This document shows positions 8,190 through 36,060 of a stretch of DNA of 64,000 nucleotides, piece after piece. Every line of letters begins with the position of its first letter. The stretch's first letter is position 1. Both the position numbers and the translations under genes were made by a program. The notes below the pieces were generated by a model. The model saw only the letters and a program-made list of their open reading frames with translations. It ran no database searches and had not been told where the DNA came from. Origin of the DNA: Spirochaetia bacterium (GTDB lineage Bacteria > Spirochaetota > Spirochaetia > SZUA-6 > Bin103); contig CBDBOV010000006.1 in NCBI GenBank assembly GCA_965208575.1, positions 928,001-992,000 on the forward strand, in the 5' to 3' direction.

Positions 8190-8385
8190 GCTTGGGGTTC
8201 GGATCGATGATAACGCGCCACGACGACAGGCAGCGCAGTAACCGGTTGGCGGTGACGTTCGGTGACCTCCGGTGACCTGACCGCCGAGTCGTTGACAGGC
8301 GCGCCGCGCCTATGCTAGCGTGCCTCACATGGGGTTCGACGGATGGTCATGAAGGGTCACGATGACAGGCACCGCAGTGACCGGT
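8190..8385 (+). repeat. Tandem ~126-bp promoter unit (TTGACA 8292, TGnTAGCGT)
   Basis: Near-identical to 22985-23160. Confidence 0.75.
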
Positions 8386-8590
8386 TTGTGGCCTTCCGCA
8401 TCCTCCTACGGCGTCGGCACCCCAAAGTAATTCCTTTCGCGGCTCGATACCCGGCCCGCACGTACCCCGGTCAACGCTTCACCCCCGCCCTAGCGGGCGA
8501 CGGCGCATGAATCGGAGCCGCCGTGGGTCGCTAGCCCTTCGACGTATGCCTCTTCCACTCACGACACCTTTCCGGTTTGTGCCGGCGCAC
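8386..8590 (-). mobile_element. Group II intron 5' remnant (GTGCG start at 8590, EBS1 retained)
   Basis: Closely similar to 24962-25166; deletion fused at tgtggc microhomology. Confidence 0.8.
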
Positions 8591-8757
8591 AGGAGGTGAA
8601 GATGATACTGAAAGAACCGCACGCGCGCGCGGCGTGAGCCCGGGTGATCCCGCCGACTCACACGCCGCGCGCTGTCAGTGTATTTGGCTCTGACTGGCCG
8701 TCCGTGTAGCGGGCGCGAGAGTAGCCAGGGAGCGCCAATCCGCTACGCAATACTCTC
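8591..8757 (+). promoter_or_regulatory. Type-A SBP leader, copy 2 (uORF MILKEPHARAA* at 8602-8637)
   Basis: AGGAGG, ATG ATA CTG AAA GAA CCG..TGA, GAGAGTA 8717 / TACTCTC 8751. Confidence 0.8.
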
Positions 8758-8780
8758 GAAGTAACATTCAAGGAGAAACG

Positions 8781-10589
8781 ATGAAGGTATTCATTGCAAG
8801 GACCTTCGCGGTTGCGTTGGTCCTGATTCTGAGCGCAACCGGCCTCTGGGCTGGCGCTGGCACGGAAGAGGCGCCGGCAGCGGCGATGGAGAAGGAAATC
8901 GTGACCGACCCCACCACCGGCAAGATGGTGACGGCGCCACAGTACGGCGGGACATTGACCTTTCCGTATGCCTTGATAGGCGAAACTACCGACCCCTTTT
9001 TTACTGGCGGCTATGCGGGCATGCTCATAGGCGGTGTCAATCAGAATCTCGCCGTCCCGAACTGGGGTCTGGACAGGAACGAATTCGCCTTTAATGGGCC
9101 TAACGTCCCTCTGTTTACTTGGACAGAGGAGCTGGCGGAAAGCTGGGAGCAACCCGACCCGCTGACCTATATCATCAACGTCCGCCAGGGCGTTCACTAC
9201 GCCCTTGATCCAGACAGTGAGGCCAGCCGCCTGGTAGGTGGTCGAGAGCTAACTGCCGATGATGTCGTATTTAACTTTCACCGTCAGTTGGTGATGGGCG
9301 ATTTCACCGAACCTCCTCAAGAGACCAAACAAGCTTCCTTTCTGCCATGGGAATCGATAGAGGCCACCGACAAATACACGGTTGTTATGAAGTTGACGGA
9401 GCCAAACCTCAATGCGCTGCAGCTTATCATCACCGAAGTTGGGTTCTGGATATTGCCCCCCGAGGTAATCGAGAAATACGGCGACTATACGGACTGGAAG
9501 AACGTGGTCGGCACCGGGCCCATGATGCTGACCGACTACGTCGAAGGCGTCTCCAAAACCTGGACCAAGAATCCTGACTACTGGGGCTACGACGAAAAAT
9601 ACCCGGAGAACCGCTTGCCGTATCTTGACAAGTTAGTGGGCCTGTATATGGCAGAAGAAGCGACCCGTCTATCGGCACTGCGCTCGGGCAAGATTGATAT
9701 GACACGCCTCTCTGGTGCTGAGATACAATCCATCGACGTGGTAAAGAGCCTCCAGCGGACCAATCCCGAACTCGAGGTATGGCCATTTTACCAGCGCTCG
9801 TTGGATGCCATCATACTGAACATTCGCAAGCCGCCCTTTGACGACATCAGAGTACGCCACGCACTGCAGATGGCACTGGACCAGGAGACGATTAACGATA
9901 CCTACTTTGGCGGTTTCGCCGACTGGCACCCTCCTCGCTACATTGGCACCAAGGGGTATTACAACGAATGGGAAGAGTGGCCCGCAGAGCTCAAGGGATA
10001 CTACACCTACGACCCGGAAGGTGCCGAGAGGCTCCTTGATGAGGCAGGATATCCGCGCGACGCGGACGGCGTCCGATTCAAGTTCGAACATCTGCACCGC
10101 GACGTCGGAGATTTGGGCTATGTAGAAATAGTCGCCGGCTACTGGGCTGATATTGGCGTTGATGCATCGATCAGGGTTACCGACTGGGCGACTATAGCCG
10201 CTGCCAAGACAGAACATGACTATGAGTCGATTTATGGCTACATGGCCATAGAGTCCCCGGGCTGGGCCATGGGACATTATGGCGCGGATCTCCTTTGGCG
10301 AAGGGCACACCTGGGGGCCGGAGTCGAGAACCCTGTGCTGGCCGCCGCCCACGCTGCCTATCACGGTGCCACTAGCGTCGATGAGCAGATAAAGGCGGCA
10401 AAAGAGTTTGGTATGGAAGCAATAAAGCAGCACTTTCAGATATGGGGTCCTCTGGCTCCAAGGTATCAGCACAGCCATCCGTGGGTGAAAGGTTTTAACG
10501 GTGAAACCTTGAACACAGTCATGCATGAGCAAAGCGTCCTCGTCCGCCTTTGGATTGATAGTGAGCTGAAGGAATCCATGGGTTATTAG
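8781..10589 (+). CDS. ABC transporter substrate-binding protein, family 5
   Basis: LAESWE, GTGP, DIRVRHALQMALD, YDPEGAERLLDEAGY; signal peptide. Confidence 0.95.
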   Translation: MKVFIARTFAVALVLILSATGLWAGAGTEEAPAAAMEKEIVTDPTTGKMVTAPQYGGTLTFPYALIGETTDPFFTGGYAGMLIGGVNQNLAVPNWGLDRNEFAFNGPNVPLFTWTEELAESWEQPDPLTYIINVRQGVHYALDPDSEASRLVGGRELTADDVVFNFHRQLVMGDFTEPPQETKQASFLPWESIEATDKYTVVMKLTEPNLNALQLIITEVGFWILPPEVIEKYGDYTDWKNVVGTGPMMLTDYVEGVSKTWTKNPDYWGYDEKYPENRLPYLDKLVGLYMAEEATRLSALRSGKIDMTRLSGAEIQSIDVVKSLQRTNPELEVWPFYQRSLDAIILNIRKPPFDDIRVRHALQMALDQETINDTYFGGFADWHPPRYIGTKGYYNEWEEWPAELKGYYTYDPEGAERLLDEAGYPRDADGVRFKFEHLHRDVGDLGYVEIVAGYWADIGVDASIRVTDWATIAAAKTEHDYESIYGYMAIESPGWAMGHYGADLLWRRAHLGAGVENPVLAAAHAAYHGATSVDEQIKAAKEFGMEAIKQHFQIWGPLAPRYQHSHPWVKGFNGETLNTVMHEQSVLVRLWIDSELKESMGY

Positions 10590-18965: not shown

Positions 18966-19140
18966 CACCCCCCCTCATTACGAACCGAGAAACAACTAAC
19001 CGCTCCGGCTGATCGCCCCGTACGCGCCTCCGCGCACCCCGTCCCCTCCACTACCGCCGCATCTGTACGTGGCGCCGGCTCGGCCATCGCTGAACCACAC
19101 CCGAAACAGACAACTTCCGTCTTGTCCAACTCACGAAAAG

Positions 19141-19300
19141 AGGAGGTCAAGATGATACTCAAAGAGCCGTGGGCGCGCGCGGCGTGAGCCCGGGTGAACC
19201 CGGCTGAGTCACACGCCGCGCGCTTTCCGAGAATTTGACTCAGACTGGCCGCCTGCGTTGCTCGTGGCCAGGGAGCGGAAATCCGCTCCGCAATACTCTC
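19141..19300 (+). promoter_or_regulatory. Type-A SBP leader, copy 3 (uORF MILKEPWARAA* at 19152-19187)
   Basis: AGGAGG + uORF + hairpin; 5' arm of the second outer stem is eroded. Confidence 0.8.
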
Positions 19301-19325
19301 GAAATAACATTCTAAGGAAGAAACG

Positions 19326-21122
19326 ATGAAGATATGTTTCACAAGGACCTTCGCGATTGCGATGGTCCTGATTCTGAGCGCGACCGGCCTCTGGGCCACT
19401 GGCGCAGAAGAGGCGCCGGCAGCCGCTGCCGACAAGAATTATGTGACCGACCCCGCCACCGGCAAGGTGGTGACCGCGCCCGAGTATGGCGCGACATTAA
19501 CCTATCCCGACCTGTCAAAGGCCGAGACTACTGACCCCTTTATTACTGGCCACCCTGCGACCCGTTTCATTGGTAGCGTTAATGAGAAGCTCGCCTGGGG
19601 GGACTGGTCAATAGATAGGGACCTGTGGGACTTTACAACCAATTTCAGCTATCCCACTGTTGCCACTACAGGGGGTCTGGCGGAAAGCTGGGAGCAGCCC
19701 GACGACACGACGATCGTCGTCCACGTCCGCCCGGGCGTTCACTGGCATGATAAGCCACCGATGAACGGTCGGGAGCTAACTGCCGATGATGTCGTGTATA
19801 CCTTTCAGCGTAATACCGTTCAGGGCGACTTCACCGAACGTCCCCTCAAGACTTACGAGTTGATCAACCTGCCATGGGAATCGATAGAGGCCACCGACAA
19901 GTATACGGTTGTCTTCAAGCTGAAGGAGCCATATCTCGGTGCGCTGAAGGCCATCCTCAGCGACATACAGGGTTGGATATTACCCCCCGAGGTAATTGAG
20001 CAATACGGCGACTATGCGGATTGGAGGAACGTGGTCGGCACCGGGTCCATTATGCTGACTGACTATGTCGAAGGCGTCTCTATTACCTGGGACAAGAATC
20101 CTGACTACTGGGGCTACGACCCAAAATACCCGGAGAACCGCTTGCCCTATATTGATCAGTTAAGGCTCCTGTACATGCCAGAAGAATCAACACGTCTATC
20201 GGCACTACGCACGGGTCAGATTGATATGATACATGCCGGCACGGCGGCGGTAAATACCCTCGACGTGGTAAAGAGCCTGCAGCGGACCAACCCCGAAGTT
20301 CAGGTGACCGGTTATTTCATGCGAGCGGTTGGGAGTTTCGGTCTGAACGTACACAAGCCGCCCTTTGACGACGTCAGGGTTCGCCACGCACTGCAGATGG
20401 CGCTGGACCTCGAGACGATCAACGATACCTACTTTGGCGGTTACGCAAAGTGGGAACCCATGGGGATGATAGGGTATGCCCTCCCGGAGTATTACACCCC
20501 ATTTGAAGATTTTCCCGAAGAGGTCAAGCAATACTACAGGTATGACCCGGAAGGTGCCGAGAAGCTCCTTGATGCGGCTGGATATCCGCGCGGCGCGGAC
20601 GGCGTTCGATTCAAGGTCAACTATGACCACGTCATCGCCGATGATTTAGGCTATGCAGAAATAGCTGTCGGCTACTGGGATGCGATTGGCGTTGATGTAG
20701 AGATCGATATGTATGACGGGCCTACTTGGTACAATCGTAGAAACGACGGTATTTATCACATGACCCTTGGCGACATGGGCTTTAATCTCAGCCCTTCAAT
20801 GTTGATAGGCTGGTATCGTGGGGGTGGACATGTCCGCCATTACATGGGCGGCGATGTCGACACCCCTGAGATGACCGCCGCCTATGAAGCCTTTTTCGCC
20901 GCTACCACCGTTGAGGAGCAGCAGAGGGCATTTAAGGAGTTTGACATGGCCATAATAAAGCACCACAATCAGATATATAGTCCTATGCGTCCAAGGTATC
21001 AGGTGGCGCAGCCGTGGGTCAAAGGTTATAACGGAGAATGGGAGCTGGAAATTGCGGGAGAACGTAGCGTCCTCATCCACCTTTGGATTGACCAAGATCT
21101 AAAGGAAGAAATGGGATTCTGA
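19326..21122 (+). CDS. ABC substrate-binding protein, family 5
   Basis: Family motifs, signal peptide. Confidence 0.95.
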   Translation: MKICFTRTFAIAMVLILSATGLWATGAEEAPAAAADKNYVTDPATGKVVTAPEYGATLTYPDLSKAETTDPFITGHPATRFIGSVNEKLAWGDWSIDRDLWDFTTNFSYPTVATTGGLAESWEQPDDTTIVVHVRPGVHWHDKPPMNGRELTADDVVYTFQRNTVQGDFTERPLKTYELINLPWESIEATDKYTVVFKLKEPYLGALKAILSDIQGWILPPEVIEQYGDYADWRNVVGTGSIMLTDYVEGVSITWDKNPDYWGYDPKYPENRLPYIDQLRLLYMPEESTRLSALRTGQIDMIHAGTAAVNTLDVVKSLQRTNPEVQVTGYFMRAVGSFGLNVHKPPFDDVRVRHALQMALDLETINDTYFGGYAKWEPMGMIGYALPEYYTPFEDFPEEVKQYYRYDPEGAEKLLDAAGYPRGADGVRFKVNYDHVIADDLGYAEIAVGYWDAIGVDVEIDMYDGPTWYNRRNDGIYHMTLGDMGFNLSPSMLIGWYRGGGHVRHYMGGDVDTPEMTAAYEAFFAATTVEEQQRAFKEFDMAIIKHHNQIYSPMRPRYQVAQPWVKGYNGEWELEIAGERSVLIHLWIDQDLKEEMGF

Positions 21123-23180: not shown

Positions 23181-23559
23181 CTGCTACCCCCCCCCCCACT
23201 TTTTCGAACCGAGAAACAACTAACCGCTCCGGCTGATCGCCGCGCACGCGGCCCCGCGCACGCCGTCGCCTTCTCCACCGCCGTAGCTGTCGGTGGCGCC
23301 GGCTCGGTCGATCGCCAGACCGCCCGCACCCATCCCGTCGACTCAGGCGGTGCCGGATCCCCGCCTGCGACTAACTGCGCGCAAAACCCTCCGCCTGCGT
23401 TGGCGGCCATTCAGACTCACTGCTGCTCAGACCACCGCCACGCGTGGCGTTGTAACGCAGATCCCGACGTAGATCTAGAGAAGAGTTGGAGTAGGGATGA
23501 CCATCGCTGATCACCCCCTCCACAGATCCCGGCGAGCGGGACTACCGCACCGGGCTCCT

Positions 23560-24803
23560 GCCTCAGGGATGACGCCAAGGCGGTGCAAGGGATAGGGATG
23601 GCACCCTCGGGGCGGTGGCAACCAGTGGTCAAGCAGGCGGCTCATCCGCTCCCAGGTAAGCCGGGTTTTCTGACTGCGCCGCCGCATCGACCGATACCAG
23701 AGCCGACCAACCCGGACGCGGAACAGGCGGAGTGCGCGGGAGTTCGTGGGCACCCCGTATTAACGCAGGTGCCCACTCACAACCGAGCGCAGCCAGCTTC
23801 CCACCTCCGGGACCGGATCGTGCAGGCGCCGCCGAAGCTCGGTCTTCACCAGCCAGCCGTGGTCGATGGCATCGAAGAACCCACGGATGTCCATGTCGAG
23901 CACCCAGGTCACCTTCCGTGTCAGCAGGCCCACATAGAGCGCGTCCAACGCATTGTGCTGGCTGCGCCCCGGTCGGAACCCGTAACTGAACCCGAGGAAG
24001 TCGGTCTCGTAGATGGTGTTCAGCACCTCGACTGTCGCACGCTGGACGATCTTGTCTTCCAGCGCCGTCACGCCGAGCGGTCGTTGCCGCCCGTCGCTCT
24101 TGGGGACGAACACCCTCCGCACCGGCTTCGCCCGGTACGCTCCTCGCTTGAGCCGTCCGGAGAGGTCCAGGAGGTTGCCCTCCAGGTCCCTTCCGTGCTG
24201 CCGCCACGTCACCCGGTCCACGCCCGGCGCGGCTTCCCGCCCCCGGCGGAAGTACGCCTCCCGGAGGATCGCGGGGTTGTCGACGTGGTGCATGAGCGCG
24301 GTGAACCGCAGCGTCCTATCCCGTCGCGCTGCTTGACGTATCCGCTCCAGCGCACTGTGCACGCCCTAGCAGCCGGTGGCGAAACTCCAGCTGCATTCGA
24401 GCGGCGAATGCATCCCGGCTGGCTGCGTTGCTCCTCGCTCACATATGGCCGATATGCTCGTTCGTCGCGCCTTGCCAGCCGGGCGCCTCGCCGCTCTCGG
24501 TGCGACGCCGGGTTCCGCCACGGGCTGCTAGTGCCGGCGCGGTGTCCGGGGCGCGCTTTGCTGGTGCGGATTCCCTTTGGCCAGGCCCCTTCCCTCCACC
24601 CGCTCCGCGGTTGGGGCGCTACCGGCCGGCGTGGCCGTAGGTGCTCCCTTGGCTGTGTCCGGCGTTTCCGCCTGCGTGCCCGTGTAGGGTTCACCATAGC
24701 CGCGCCGCCTGCGGCAGCTCCCGTCCTTGTTCGCGGGTTTCCCAGGTACCCCGAAGGGCGGCCGGCAGGCCGGGGGCCTGTCCGACTTCCCAGCGCCGTT
24801 CAT
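23560..24803 (-). pseudogene. ltrA: Group II intron RT/maturase pseudogene
   Basis: MNGAGKSD..AKGN, AAPGVD, PKSDGRQRPLG..EDKIVQ, SYGFRPGR, DIRGFFD; deletion removes PQG/YADD region; X-domain HPYP in another frame; MITE insertion. Confidence 0.88.
24366..24531. mobile_element. MITE with ~20-bp terminal inverted repeats and CTAG ends, inside intron ORF
   Basis: ctagcagccggtggcgaaac / gttccgccacgggctgctag (2 mismatches); internally palindromic. Confidence 0.8.
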
Positions 24804-25166
24804 CGTCGGCGTCCGTCCTTCGACTTCCCGACACGGCCTGCGGCGCCATCCGCCACCGGCGAAGCTGGGATCTCCCGGCTCCCGCGCAAGGTGTTTCCGT
24901 ACGTGCCCGGGGTCTGTGACCGCGCAGGGTCCCGTGGCGCCTCGCGATATCGGCGTCCCGGGTGTGGCCTTCCGCATCCTCCTACGGCGTCGGCACCCCA
25001 AAGTAATCTCTTTCGCGGCTCGATACCCGGCCCGCACGTACCCCTGTCAACGCGTCACCCCCGCCCTCGCGGGCGACGGCGCATGACTCGGGGCCGCCGT
25101 GGGTCGCTAACCCTTCGACGTATGACTCTTCCATTCACAACACCTTGCCGGTTTGTGCCGGCGCAC

Positions 25167-25334
25167 AGGAGGTTCGAATGATACTCAAAGAGCCGCACGT
25201 GCGCGCGGCGTGAGCCGGGGTGAACCCGGATGAGTCACACGCCGCGCGCTCTTAGTGAATTTGACTCAGACTGGCCGTCTGCGTTGCGGGCATGAGAGTA
25301 GCCAGGGAGCGGCAAGTCGCTCCGCAATACTCTC
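25167..25334 (+). promoter_or_regulatory. Type-A SBP leader, copy 4 (uORF MILKEPHVRAA* at 25178-25213)
   Basis: AGGAGG + uORF; GAGAGTA 25294 / TACTCTC 25328. Confidence 0.8.
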
Positions 25335-25358
25335 GAGAATCAAGATCCGGAGTTACGC

Positions 25359-27161
25359 ATGAAGTTTGTAAAAATTAGAATGACCTTCGCGTTTGCGTTG
25401 GTCCTCGTAATGACCGCAACCGGCCTCTGGGCCGCTGGCGCAGAAGAGGAGCCGGCAGCCGCTGCCGACAAGAAGTATGTGACCGACCCCTCCACCGGCA
25501 AGGCGGTGGTGGCGCCAGAGTATGGCGGGACATTGACCTACGCCTCGCATAATATAGTTCCGCATACTGACGCCTATTTCCATCACCACCCGGGAGAACA
25601 TGTCTCCAGTGTTGTAGAGAAGCTTACTATGCTGGACTGGGCAGCGCCCAGGGACGTATTCAACATTAGAACACATACTTCAACCGCGCCTCTGTCTCTC
25701 TATAAAGGGCACCTGGCGGAGAGTTGGGAAAAGCCCGACGACACAACATTTATCTTCCACATCCGCAAGGGCGTTCACTGGCATAATAAGCCACCGATGA
25801 ACGGTCGGGAGCTGACTGCCGATGATGTGGTATATAACTATCACCGTATGACGGGTCTGGGCAGCGGCTTCACGGAACCCAGCCCCACTTGGACCGCAAA
25901 TTTGTACCTGGTCGAATCGATAACGGCCACCGACAAATATACGGTCGTCTTCAAGCAGACGAAGGTAGACCCCACTGCGCTGTTTACTTTCACTCAACAC
26001 ATGAATTGGATATACCCCCCCGAGGTCATCAAGCAACACGGCGACATGAAGGATTGGAGGAACTTGGTTGGCACGGGGCCCTATGAGCTGACTGACTGGG
26101 TCGAGGGCAGCTCTGTCACCTGGACCAAGAATCCCGACTATTGGGGATTCGATGAAAAATACCCACAGAACCGCTTGCCCTACGTTGACAGTGTAACGAA
26201 GCTGATTATGCCAGACGCGGCAACACGGCTGGCGGCACTGCGCTCGGGAAAGGTTGATGCCCTGGGTATGCCTTTCGGCGACAGTCAATTAGGGTCTATC
26301 GACCAGGTAGATAGCCTCAAGCGGACCAATCCCGAAATCGTGCTGGAGCCGATGTCATATCGGTCGGAAACGTCTTGGGTTGTTAACCCGAATGTACCAC
26401 CCTTTGACGACAACCGGGTGCGCCACGCACTGCAGATGGCACTGGACCTTGATTCAATTAACAATACCTACTGGAAGGGTTTTGCAGAAACGACACCTAT
26501 GGGGTATTTGGGGAGTGGTTTGGTCGGGTATGTCACCCCGTTCGAAGATTGGCCTAAAGAGATCAAGCAATACTACAGGTATGACCCGGAAGGGGCTGAG
26601 AAGCTCCTGGATGAGGCTGGTTATCCCCGCGGCGCGGACGGCATTAGATTCAAGACCGTTCTGGATGTGAGCGTACCATGGCAGGTTGCAGCCTATCACG
26701 AATTAGCTGCCTCCTACTGGGATGCGATTGGCGTTGATGTAGAGATTGTGGAGAACGACGGCCCTACTGTCCGTGCGAAGCGAAAGGAAGGTACTTTTGA
26801 GATTCAGGCTTTTATTTCGGGGAACGACTGGGACCCCCTGGAGCAGATTAAGCAGTTTTACACTCCTGCTGCTTCACCGTATAATACTCCCAACGTAAAG
26901 GATCCGGCTTATGACGCCCTGGTTGCACCGGTCTTAGCCGCCGATACCATTGAGGAGCGGCAGAGGCTGATTAAACCGGTAGAAAAGTACATTAATGAAC
27001 AGCACTGGTATATATGGGGTAGTCGAGTTCCACAGTTTCACGCGCTCCAGCCGTGGGTTATAGGTTACAACGGTGAAACCGGCCTGGGAGACATGGACCG
27101 TGTGGTCCTCCTTGCCCGCCTCTGGATTGATAGTGAGCTGAAGGAAGCAATGGGTCATTAG
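25359..27161 (+). CDS. ABC substrate-binding protein, family 5
   Basis: Family motifs. Confidence 0.95.
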   Translation: MKFVKIRMTFAFALVLVMTATGLWAAGAEEEPAAAADKKYVTDPSTGKAVVAPEYGGTLTYASHNIVPHTDAYFHHHPGEHVSSVVEKLTMLDWAAPRDVFNIRTHTSTAPLSLYKGHLAESWEKPDDTTFIFHIRKGVHWHNKPPMNGRELTADDVVYNYHRMTGLGSGFTEPSPTWTANLYLVESITATDKYTVVFKQTKVDPTALFTFTQHMNWIYPPEVIKQHGDMKDWRNLVGTGPYELTDWVEGSSVTWTKNPDYWGFDEKYPQNRLPYVDSVTKLIMPDAATRLAALRSGKVDALGMPFGDSQLGSIDQVDSLKRTNPEIVLEPMSYRSETSWVVNPNVPPFDDNRVRHALQMALDLDSINNTYWKGFAETTPMGYLGSGLVGYVTPFEDWPKEIKQYYRYDPEGAEKLLDEAGYPRGADGIRFKTVLDVSVPWQVAAYHELAASYWDAIGVDVEIVENDGPTVRAKRKEGTFEIQAFISGNDWDPLEQIKQFYTPAASPYNTPNVKDPAYDALVAPVLAADTIEERQRLIKPVEKYINEQHWYIWGSRVPQFHALQPWVIGYNGETGLGDMDRVVLLARLWIDSELKEAMGH

Positions 27162-27168
27162 GGGTTTT

Positions 27169-27754
27169 GAGCAGCCGACAAGACTGCATTCCAGCCGGGG
27201 AAGGACCGGCCGTACCAATTGCCCGGTTCGGGTACGTAGTGATGCCACAGTTCGTGTTGGGTAACCGCACTATAGCTGCGTGGTGTATAAGGCCCTGCCG
27301 CTTTGTCAGGCACAGGACTGCAAGGTGGGGGCATCCAGAGGGTCGAGCGAGCACAGGAGCCTGAACATAAAGGAATGTCTGCAGCCCCGAAATATGACCC
27401 CCGGCGAACGATGCTGTCCGGGACCCTTTGGTGTGCCGAGCACGTAAGCCCTATTGCGAGGCCGACGCTCTTCGTGAAGAAACGGGTACATGCCGCGAAG
27501 AGACACTACGGGGTACCGGCGGGGTTAGGGGCGTATGCGTGCCAGCGCTTGAGCTTCGGCCCCGTCGGGAAGGTCCATCGGGGAAAGTGGGCATGGCCGC
27601 CAACCGGACTCGAGAAATTCGACCGTCCGGGATGAGAGGGGGGCTTCGCGGAAACGTGGACTATGGTGGAACTAGGATCCTGCCTCGCAATCGAAAGAGC
27701 TGGGTGGTTATGAATCTCTGCCTACGGCTGCGCGCGCCGCGATTCTACCCGGCC
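27169..27754 (+). ncRNA. ORF-less group II intron-like element with variant domain V
   Basis: DV-like aaccggactcgagaaattcgaccgtccggga (~27601-27633) followed by purine run, long DVI-like region and ctAcccggcc; absent from paralogous 3' UTRs. Confidence 0.65.
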
Positions 27755-35928: not shown

Positions 35929-36060
35929 AAGGCGGTTCAACATGGTACTCAAAGAGCCGTAGGCGCGCGCGGCGTGAGCCGGGGCGAACCCGGATGAGTC
36001 ACACGCCGCGCGCTCTCAGGAACTTGACTCGGACTGGTCGCCCGCGTTGCGGGCGCGAAT
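35929..36060 (+). promoter_or_regulatory. Type-A SBP leader, copy 5, degenerate (MVLKEP*; second hairpin deleted)
   Basis: SD AGGCGG; codon 7 TAG; GAGAGTA..TACTCTC block absent. Confidence 0.75.

Follow-up and report, generated by a model that had tools for sequence, protein, structure and literature searches.

A decayed group II intron with a Shine-Dalgarno-like target-recognition loop that lies, like its relatives in many bacterial phyla, antisense beside a ribosome-binding site

Identification of an antisense group II intron at a leader ribosome-binding site

How does a mobile intron come to lie, on the opposite strand, exactly against the ribosome-binding site (RBS) of a gene leader? This question is raised by a 64,000-nt stretch (hereafter the window) of a Spirochaetia bacterium (GCA_965208575.1, contig CBDBOV010000006.1, positions 928,001 to 992,000, forward strand). 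A preliminary description had placed a group II intron at 23485–25172, directly abutting AGGAGG at two loci, and this observation is confirmed. The elements concerned are the following:

23485–25166, minus strand: group II intron, defective copy of 1682 nt (GUGCG...AC)
24910–25129, minus strand: domain I core matched by Rfam RF02005
23485–23559, minus strand: domains V and VI as read from the sequence (AGC triad, 5-nt domain V loop UAGUC, bulged branch A, 3′ end ...CUACUCCAAC)
25167–25172, minus strand: IBS1, 5′-CCUCCU-3′ on the intron strand, i.e. the AGGAGG Shine-Dalgarno (SD) sequence of a leader mini-ORF on the plus strand
23484, minus strand: first 3′-exon nucleotide (U on the intron strand), the probable IBS3
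25167–25358, plus strand: leader with the SD, mini-ORF 25178–25213 (MILKEPHVRAA*) and two strong hairpins, upstream of the solute-binding-protein (SBP) gene 25359–27161
8387–8590, minus strand: second copy, a 204-nt 5′ fragment of the same intron at the same position of a paralogous leader
8591–8787, plus strand: the paralogous leader occupied by this fragment, upstream of SBP gene 8781–10589

On the minus strand, the intron starts with GTGCGCC at 25166 and at 8590, in both cases preceded by CCTCCT (AGGAGG on the plus strand at 25167–25172 and 8591–8596). RF02005 (group II D1-D4-6) matched 24910–25129 with 176 bits over the full model (positions 1–225) and 8360–8553 with 110 bits, against a gathering score of 49, and blastn aligned the fragment to intron nt 1–204 with 94% identity. 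RF00029 (domains V/VI) matched 23485–23559 with 36 bits, below its cut-off of 40, and a search of the whole genome with this model returned only one further, likewise sub-threshold hit; the AGC triad, bulged A, GUGCG start and AC end are readable in the sequence and conserved in relatives. Removal of 23485–25166 yields ...tagagaaga|aggaggttcga, while paralogous empty sites in the same genome (G000), e.g. at positions 737423 and 713554 of its contig C3, read ...gaag-A|AGGAGGTTCGA. Together with full-length relatives and the exact 23484|25167 joint in contigs of four RNA runs (see below), this fixes the intron boundaries. The 3′ exon starts with T in most relatives of the type described below, suggesting the first 3′-exon nucleotide as IBS3, a role inferred without its pairing partner.

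The leader was defined by aligning six window copies, folding, and an nhmmer search that returned 63 matches in the genome. It spans ~195 nt and precedes family-5 SBP genes (SBP_bac_5) of peptide-type ABC transporters.

The SD-like loop is EBS1

The preliminary description had further taken an AGGAGG loop within domain I for EBS1. This is supported:

24968–24994, minus strand: domain I hairpin GCCGACGC-CGUAGGAGGAU-GCGGAAGG carrying EBS1 (intron nt 173–199)
24978–24983, minus strand: EBS1, 5′-AGGAGG-3′, an SD-like word (intron nt 184–189; 8402–8407 in the fragment)

The word lies in the 9-nt loop of a hairpin drawn by the RF02005 alignment, whose loop-closing pair covaries among relatives (C-G, U-A, A-U), and pairs with the exon at six of six positions in the window. 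As a 6-mer match somewhere within 1.7 kb is not rare by itself, the match might have arisen by chance, with the true EBS1 located elsewhere. However, across 62 related introns with distinct loop/exon combinations, loop positions 3–8 paired with exon positions –1 to –6 in 335 of 372 cells, compared to a mean of 197.6 (maximum 226) for shuffled exons; none of 2000 shuffles reached the observed value. Each position was paired in 79–94% of rows, and all four Watson-Crick types occurred at –1 (A:T 25, C:G 12, T:A 11, G:C 9). Close relatives covary at this position: loop AGGAGG goes with exon CCTCCT in the genus of the window (g1), UGGAGG with CCTCCA in genome G020, and CGGAGG with CCTCCG in genomes G018 and G023. 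In three other RF02005 intron families of G000, the same loop carries different words, each complementary to its own 5′ exon. A chance match is thus contradicted and very unlikely. Diverged leader remnants with exon CCTCGC or CCTCC|GAUGCG have lost the EBS1 hairpin and could not enter this count.

A cross-phylum clade sits antisense at ribosome-binding sites

It had been inferred that this lineage homes to the antisense strand of strong RBSs, an abundant site that spares ORFs. Overall, this interpretation is only partly supported: it holds for the wider lineage, which sits at the antisense side of RBSs of diverse genes in many phyla, but needs changing for the genus itself. In a tree of 63 intron-encoded proteins (IEPs), a clade of 39 rows spanning many phyla (SH-aLRT 91) contained 36 with an SD-like EBS1 (AAGGAG, AGGAG, GGAGG, NGGAGG) and three without, whereas two of the 24 rows outside it were SD-like. 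Of 38 SD-type introns with at least 60 nt of flank, 31 had an antisense ORF start within 22 nt, and 29 of these were ATG at a distance of 12–15 nt; the insertion point lies directly upstream (in gene sense) of the SD, leaving SD and ORF intact. The remaining seven showed no ORF by our rule. Among non-SD relatives, six of 27 passed, five of which were tandem junctions. The base rate at AGGAGG, AAGGAG and TGGAGG sites, computed in G000 only rather than in each host genome, was 36–38% by the loose rule and 3–7% for ATG at 11–15 nt. These counts include several sites from the same metagenome-assembled genome (MAG; L033/34/36/37, L063–65 and L057/58, where L numbers denote intron loci), and relatives are not independent.

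As targeting is inferred from where copies now lie, survivorship could produce much of this bias. In this view, the intron would recognize merely 6–7 nt (EBS1 plus EBS3) and land at any matching word, with insertions inside genes subsequently lost by selection, and SD-likeness would not be an adaptation for RBS targeting. In line with this, no conserved IBS2 was found between –7 and –14 among ten distinct G020 sites or within the multi-site MAGs, and IIE/IIF ribozymes do not need EBS2 for splicing (PMC3753933). Likewise, two of the ten G020 sites (L008, L020) lack an antisense CAT (start codon) close to the insertion point and, by the ORF rule, four of 13 sites of the related g2 genomes (L008, L015, L020, L023) show no antisense gene start, while nine pass. 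In contrast, the enrichment is large, and retention of an SD-like EBS1 in 36 of 39 rows across many phyla suggests that the word itself is selected. We consider the passive scenario possible but less likely than not; it differs from our main reading only in cause, not in the observed pattern.

In its own genus the intron occupies one multi-copy leader

All ten intron 5′ ends in G000, and all 31 examined in five genomes of the genus (G000, G001, G003, G005, G006), lie in the same leader family, rather than at strong RBSs in general. G000 has 58 copies of this leader, 22–24 of them (about 40%) colonized, whereas its 722 other AGGAGG RBS-like sites are empty. The leader family was found in seven of ten other g1 genomes, but in none of 13 g2 genomes and none of 17 others, and among the genomes searched the intron was found only in leader-rich g1 genomes. 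The 16S rRNA 3′ end, a perfect IBS1 plus IBS3 match, was considered as a native home; yet the single 16S gene of G000 is uninterrupted, and none of the 5′ flanks listed from the retrieved loci is a 16S end, although rRNA operons are often missing from MAGs.

EBS1 alone does not explain this pattern. It is possible, if less likely than not, that in this genus the intron is a true site-specific homer, for which the SD match would be one part of a longer site also read by the IEP, a cryptic EBS2 or the GC-rich DNA hairpin ~34 nt upstream. In line with this, both full-length copies have 3′ exons beginning with TCTT. However, positions –7 to –12 vary among occupied leaders (tcgaa, cttca, tttgca, cttgg), excluding a simple IBS2, and no other determinant was found; relatives at 87% identity insert at unrelated sites. 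Redundancy among 58 paralogous operons could simply make leader insertions the only tolerated ones.

The preliminary description had cautioned that both window copies may stem from one insertion plus duplication. This is not supported, as the intron parts are 92.7% identical, against 80.4% for the adjacent leaders and 65.3% for the SBP genes. Over eight copies, mean identity was 92% for intron nt 1–96, 80% for the leader and 66% for the SBP coding sequence, with one pair at 100%, 71% and 56%. A single ancient insertion copied along with duplicating transporter operons, in which case the copies would say nothing about target choice, would fit the shared 5′ flank family and the many short, diverged 5′ remnants, which could be old. 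Indeed, one pair of sites (positions 524709 and 509077 of contig C4) has near-identical leaders (99.5%) and may be a true duplication. Yet full-length copies sit in leaders with unrelated 3′ exons (those of copies L121 and L122 differ), 36 of 58 leaders lack the 5′-hairpin remnant, some being perfect unoccupied sites, and the related g2 intron occupies 14 unrelated sites. We therefore regard this alternative as unlikely.

Interpretation and relation to known introns

We interpret the feature as a dead copy of a bacterial group II intron retroelement lacking an endonuclease (En) domain, with an IIB-like ribozyme and class E/F-like traits (probability roughly 0.8). The analysis itself establishes the complementarity of EBS1 to the opposite strand of the leader SD, membership in a cross-phylum clade with SD-like EBS1, the antisense position of members beside RBSs, restriction to the leader in this genus through repeated independent insertions, and decay of the window copies with intact copies persisting in two sister genomes. 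By contrast, mobility and the targeted DNA strand are inferred from what is established for group II introns: the lariat RNP would reverse-splice into the strand carrying CCUCCU|U, guided by EBS1-IBS1 and probably EBS3-IBS3, and cDNA synthesis would be primed without an En domain, presumably at replication forks as for RmInt1. The RBS bias, far above what the motif alone gives, is inferred to come either from further target recognition or from loss of insertions landing inside ORFs. That the intron cannot be spliced out of the host mRNA and pushes the promoter ~2 kb away from the leader, in agreement with the preliminary description, is inferred from its orientation.

Group IIC introns, inserting after intrinsic terminators or attC sites, similarly use an En-minus IEP, target a generic, genome-wide motif in intergenic DNA and show no usable IBS2 (PMC4424553, PMC12584367). 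However, they read a DNA stem-loop plus a 3–4-bp IBS1 and have a reduced domain I, whereas here EBS1 forms 6 bp, domain I is IIB-like (RF02005) and the motif is the complement of the SD. By eye, no stem-loop directly precedes the insertion point in the 5′ exons listed, and in the window's leader the nearest strong hairpin ends about 34 nt upstream.

IIB1 introns located within or at start or stop codons (PMC12584367; Michel et al. 2007, Biochimie) likewise associate with translation signals of host genes and form head-to-tail tandem copies, because the first intron G can serve as IBS3. Those introns lie in the sense strand and carry a 300–700-nt 5′-subterminal insertion in domain I. The present intron is antisense, lies upstream of the SD and has no such insertion, RF02005 model position 1 aligning to intron nt 38.

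Class E and F introns share a compact IIB-like ribozyme (about 700 nt without the ORF), a 5-nt domain V loop (here GCGG-UAGUC-CCGC), an extra terminal stem-loop just 3′ of the EBS1 hairpin, and splice-site definition dependent on EBS1-IBS1 (PMC3753933). In these classes the alpha′ motif lies in the terminal loop of a stem-loop in DId3; here a second hairpin follows the EBS1 hairpin in the RF02005 structure, and by eye only a 4-bp match to a candidate alpha was found. The absence of an En domain is supported, Pfam finding RVT_1 only in the intact IEP and the ORF ending in domain VI. The resemblance to these classes rests on two structural traits rather than on a tree with reference IEPs, and no SD-like EBS1 or RBS-antisense siting was found reported for IIE/IIF in the text examined.

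RmInt1 of Sinorhizobium meliloti, also En-minus, multiplies by homing into a repeated target within one genome, the multi-copy ISRm2011-2 (PMC1802570, PMC4615759). Its target lies inside an insertion sequence and is recognized through EBS1, EBS2 and EBS3, whereas here the repeated target is a host regulatory leader and only EBS1, plus one 3′-exon nucleotide, is evident.

A 2015 review names only three target strategies of bacterial group II introns, namely long homing sites, terminators and attC (PMC4424553). Full-text literature searches, including PMC8643678, PMC7306698, PMC4748821, PMC4028801, PMC3552965 and PMC3245105, returned no description of an SD-like EBS1 or RBS-antisense siting, although prior description cannot be excluded, particularly in older work (Michel et al. 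2007; Toro et al. 2002, Gene; Simon et al. 2008, RNA; Lambowitz & Zimmerly 2011) and in supplements. It appears about as likely as not that a widespread En-minus clade has turned its EBS1 into a copy of the SD, using the complement of RBSs—present in front of genes in nearly every bacterium—as a portable landing pad, with the g1 sublineage having narrowed to the leader. This would constitute a fourth kind of specificity, show how a 6-nt guide can find a safe, universal intergenic address, and help explain the spread across phyla. It also raises the possibilities that the same loop pairs with the anti-SD tail of 16S rRNA and that insertions rewire expression of the genes behind them. For genome annotation, it explains a class of ~2-kb antisense inserts, and their short remnants, wedged between promoters and RBSs, here in front of two dozen transporter operons of a bacterium whose sequence occurs in sponge-metagenome runs; such inserts probably alter expression of those operons.

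Transcript contigs and decay of the window copy

Contigs of four metatranscriptome runs were aligned to 23300–27300. None bridged the intron-leader junction and none carried strand information, so we draw no conclusion on expression. Contigs of all four contained the exact 23484|25167 joint, which could stem from paralogous empty leaders or intron-less strains and hence is not evidence of splicing. A sigma-70 scan of 23200–25450, covering this promoter type only, found no site and thus no support for an outward promoter in the intron 5′ end.

The window copy is a dead derivative, carrying a nested repeat, a deletion in the reverse transcriptase (RT) and a stop codon:

24366–24531, minus strand: nested MITE-like repeat of ~166 nt with terminal inverted repeats (CTAGCAGCC...GGCTGCTAG)
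23760–24365, minus strand: IEP remnant (RT domains 0–2, then the deletion junction near 23845, then a TAA stop)
23511–23759, minus strand: C-terminal IEP remnant (...HPYPLHRLGVIPEAGARCGSPARRDLWRG) running into domains V/VI

The repeat (intron nt ~636–800) matches dozens of other places on all six contigs and is missing from other intron copies, e.g. L002 and L008. The IEP remnant, a stop-to-stop frame of 201 aa, matched only positions 1–99 of the 205-position RVT_1 profile, and about 510 nt, including YADD, are missing relative to the G020 copy. Intact copies (L121, L122 and the G020 copy) provide natural material for asking how En-minus introns pick sites with so little base pairing; the intact IEP comprises 542 aa with YADD, Pfam finds RVT_1 only, and the ORF ends inside domain VI.

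Structure and decay of the intron copies

On the minus strand, the window contains a group II intron of 1682 nt that begins with GUGCGCC and ends with ...CUACUCCAAC. A match to Rfam RF02005 (group II D1-D4-6; gathering score 49) covers its domain I region, and a second, shorter match falls on the other copy. Domains V/VI matched RF00029 at 36 bits, just under its cut-off of 40; the AGC triad, a 5-nt DV loop and a bulged A can be read directly from the sequence. The main features are as follows.

25166 to 23485, minus strand: group II intron, 1682 nt
24910-25129, minus strand: RF02005 match, 176 bits
24983-24978, minus strand: AGGAGG loop word, EBS1
24366-24531, minus strand: nested 166-nt MITE-like repeat with terminal inverted repeats
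8590 to 8387, minus strand: second copy, a 204-nt 5′ fragment
8360-8553, minus strand: RF02005 match to the second copy, 110 bits
25178-25213, plus strand: 11-codon mini-ORF (MILKEPHVRAA)

Both copies are preceded by CCTCCT, which on the plus strand reads as the AGGAGG in front of the mini-ORF. The latter opens a ~195-nt leader with two strong hairpins, located upstream of a 600-aa family-5 solute-binding protein (SBP) gene and two permease genes.

The window copy is dead. Compared with full-length relatives (2016 nt in G020, a genome of sister genus g2), it carries the MITE-like repeat, a deletion of about 510 nt of the reverse transcriptase, including YADD, and a TAA stop. The repeat, whose terminal inverted repeats read CTAGCAGCC...GGCTGCTAG, was found by blastn in dozens of copies on all six contigs of the host genome (G000), and depth is high in RNA-run contigs over this bin.

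The AGGAGG loop is EBS1

AGGAGG at 24983-24978 lies in the 9-nt loop of a hairpin drawn by the Rfam model. Three other RF02005 intron families in the same genome carry different words in that loop, each complementary to its own 5′ exon: GACAAA/UUUGUC, UCUCAU/AUGAGA, and GGUGAAU/AAUUGACC, the last with one mismatch. The RF02005-type introns with non-SD EBS1 in this genome (G000 contig positions C2:295370, C1:507607, C2:585457 and C6:488926; C1:142121; and C6:642421) also have unusual 5′ ends, namely GUCGCG, GCGCG or UUGCG in place of GUGCG.

To test the pairing more broadly, 80 loci encoding relatives of the intron-encoded protein (IEP) were retrieved from public genomes, and domain I was located in 71 of them. 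Loop positions 3-8 were then paired with exon positions -1 to -6. In 62 distinct loop/exon combinations (5 tandem junctions excluded), 335 of 372 cells form pairs, whereas shuffling the exons among introns gave a mean of 197.6 and a maximum of 226, with 0 of 2000 shuffles reaching the observed value. All four Watson-Crick pairs occur at -1. Of the 8 weak rows, most are introns whose 5′ end was projected 2 nt off (exon ...CTCCTT|GA...).

A clade of introns with SD-like EBS1 at ribosome-binding sites

In most relatives with an IEP identity above about 65%, the loop word is AAGGAG, AGGAG(A/G), GGAGG, CGGAG or GAGGAG, and the exon ends in the exact complement, with CAT a few bases further upstream. 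Of 38 such introns with at least 60 nt of flank, 31 have an antisense ORF (at least 60 codons, or open to the flank end) that starts within 22 nt of the insertion point; in 29 of them, the start is ATG at 12-15 nt. Among 27 relatives with non-SD loops, the count is 6, and 5 of those 27 are tandem junctions. By comparison, only 3-7% of AGGAGG, AAGGAG or TGGAGG sites in G000 have an ATG-ORF at 11-15 nt, while 36-38% pass the loose rule.

On an IEP tree of 63 rows, a clade of 39 (SH-aLRT 91) holds 36 SD-type and 3 non-SD rows; outside it, 2 of 24 rows are SD-like. Several sites come from the same MAG, so that the rows are not independent. According to the titles of their sequence records, the hosts span Acidobacteriota, Planctomycetota, Gemmatimonadota, Alphaproteobacteria, Myxococcota and others.

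In the sister genus (g2: G018, G020 and G023), an 87%-identical intron of 2016 nt has an intact 542-aa IEP, in which YADD is present, Pfam finds RVT_1 only and no En domain is seen; the ORF ends inside domain VI. The loop of this intron reads UGGAGG or CGGAGG, and it sits at 14 unrelated sites whose exons end in CCTCCA or CCTCCG. Of 13 sites tested, 9 have an antisense ORF start. G020 also has head-to-tail arrays of full-length introns without any exon between copies (loci L021-L025; up to 3 in a row, spacing 2016 nt), as do the loci L052, L084, L086, L089 and L103; the arrays occur where the 3′ exon base equals the first G of the intron. In G020, the 3′ exon at these arrays usually starts with G, the same base as the first nucleotide of the intron, matching the mechanism shown experimentally for tandem integration of EcKTE56.groEL (PMC12584367).

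Restriction to a multi-copy leader in the host genus

The host genus (g1) is different. The leader occurs six times in the window:

25167-25358, plus strand
8591-8787, plus strand
19140-19331, plus strand
35931-36059, plus strand
672-476, minus strand
53284-53094, minus strand

Members of this family lie upstream of family-5 SBP genes of ABC transporters and comprise an SD, a mini-ORF (MILKEP..RAA, with synonymous third-position changes between copies), a long GC hairpin over the stop codon, and a second hairpin next to the SBP RBS. ATACTC occurs twice and could pair alternatively with GAGAGTA. The leader has no Rfam match and looks like an undescribed translation-coupled regulatory leader. 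Among 41 genomes searched it was found only in this genus; besides G000, it was found in 7 of 10 other g1 genomes, 0 of 13 g2 genomes and 0 of 17 genomes of other families.

In G000, an nhmmer profile finds 63 leader matches, 58 of them with the 5′ end present. By a motif for the first hairpin of the intron, 22 of the 58 carry an intron remnant (one doubtful), and two more carry an EBS1-hairpin remnant. Upstream of several leaders (e.g. C5:23230, C5:1034769, C3:265786 and C2:320105), another conserved module (GTGATTGACC..., ...GGTTAAAGGTTTCTCGTATAAAGAGTTGC followed by a long G run) lies beyond the short intron remnants and may be the promoter or operator region of the leaders, or a further repeat. 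One subfamily of leaders (window 23371-23484 and G000 C6:482606, C4:502603, C3:737423, C6:140816 and C5:337046) shares a conserved upstream block (...cacgcgtggcgttgtaacgcagatcccgacgtagatctagagaag), which is also the 3′ exon of the window intron and of an intact copy in G005 (L121).

All 10 intron 5′ ends in G000 are at the same position of a leader, as are all 21 examined in the g1 genomes G001, G003, G005 and G006, giving 31 of 31 (although the loci L117 and L118 may be one duplicated region). Yet G000 has 4182 AGGAGG words, of which 722 are RBS-like and outside leaders and only 23 lie in leaders. Likewise, the single 16S rRNA gene (C6, minus strand, near 1289703 as counted on the reverse strand) ends in GGATCACCTCCTTT, its anti-SD tail being a perfect match to EBS1 and the 3′-exon base (IBS1+IBS3), but is uninterrupted; EBS1 could in principle also pair with 16S rRNA itself. 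In this genus, either the intron might thus read more than the SD, or only leader insertions might be tolerated, two possibilities that the present data do not separate.

Independent insertions

The preliminary description had cautioned that the two window copies may stem from one insertion plus duplication, which is not borne out by the following comparisons. Among 8 G000 copies, the first 96 intron nt are 92% identical on average, compared to 80% for the adjacent leaders and 66% for the SBP genes. The two window copies read 92.7, 80.4 and 65.3%, respectively, and one pair reads 100, 71 and 56%. Moreover, intact full-length copies in G005 (L121; 1931 nt, a 594-codon open frame) and G003 (L122; 2018 nt, a 623-codon open frame) lie in leaders whose 3′ exons are unrelated beyond TCTT.

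Comparison with known introns and proposed mechanism

A 2015 review lists three target specificities for bacterial introns, namely homing sites, terminators and attC (PMC4424553). A 2025 paper adds the IIB1 lineage at start and stop codons, which is sense-strand and carries a large 5′ insertion (PMC12584367). Neither fits here. The ribozyme shares two structural traits given for classes E and F, a 5-nt DV loop and a terminal stem-loop after EBS1 (PMC3753933), a resemblance that rests on these traits rather than on phylogeny. Full-text literature searches, which did not cover several older key papers, returned no description of an SD-like EBS1 or of RBS-antisense siting of group II introns; if this gap in the literature is real, these two properties would set the element, itself a decayed member, apart from the introns described so far and be of high interest.

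The observation of a group II intron whose EBS1 reads as an SD sequence, inserted antisense at the leader RBS, is confirmed. The accompanying interpretation, that this lineage homes to the antisense strand of strong RBSs, is largely right for the clade but too broad for the host genus. While the pairing rule, the siting and the clade are directly supported by our data, reverse splicing of the lariat RNP into the strand bearing CCUCCU|U and En-independent priming are inferred from established group II biology. From orientation alone, the host mRNA would be unable to splice the intron out, and SD and ORF would stay intact while the promoter is displaced.

Both window SBP genes downstream of intron copies are still open. 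A sigma-70 scan found no outward promoter, and the RNA contigs were uninformative. Contigs of four metatranscriptome runs (X15, X16, X17 and X19) do, however, contain the exact intron-less joint (window 23404-23484 joined to 25167 onward); the runs containing the stretch are labelled sponge metagenome or coded organisms.
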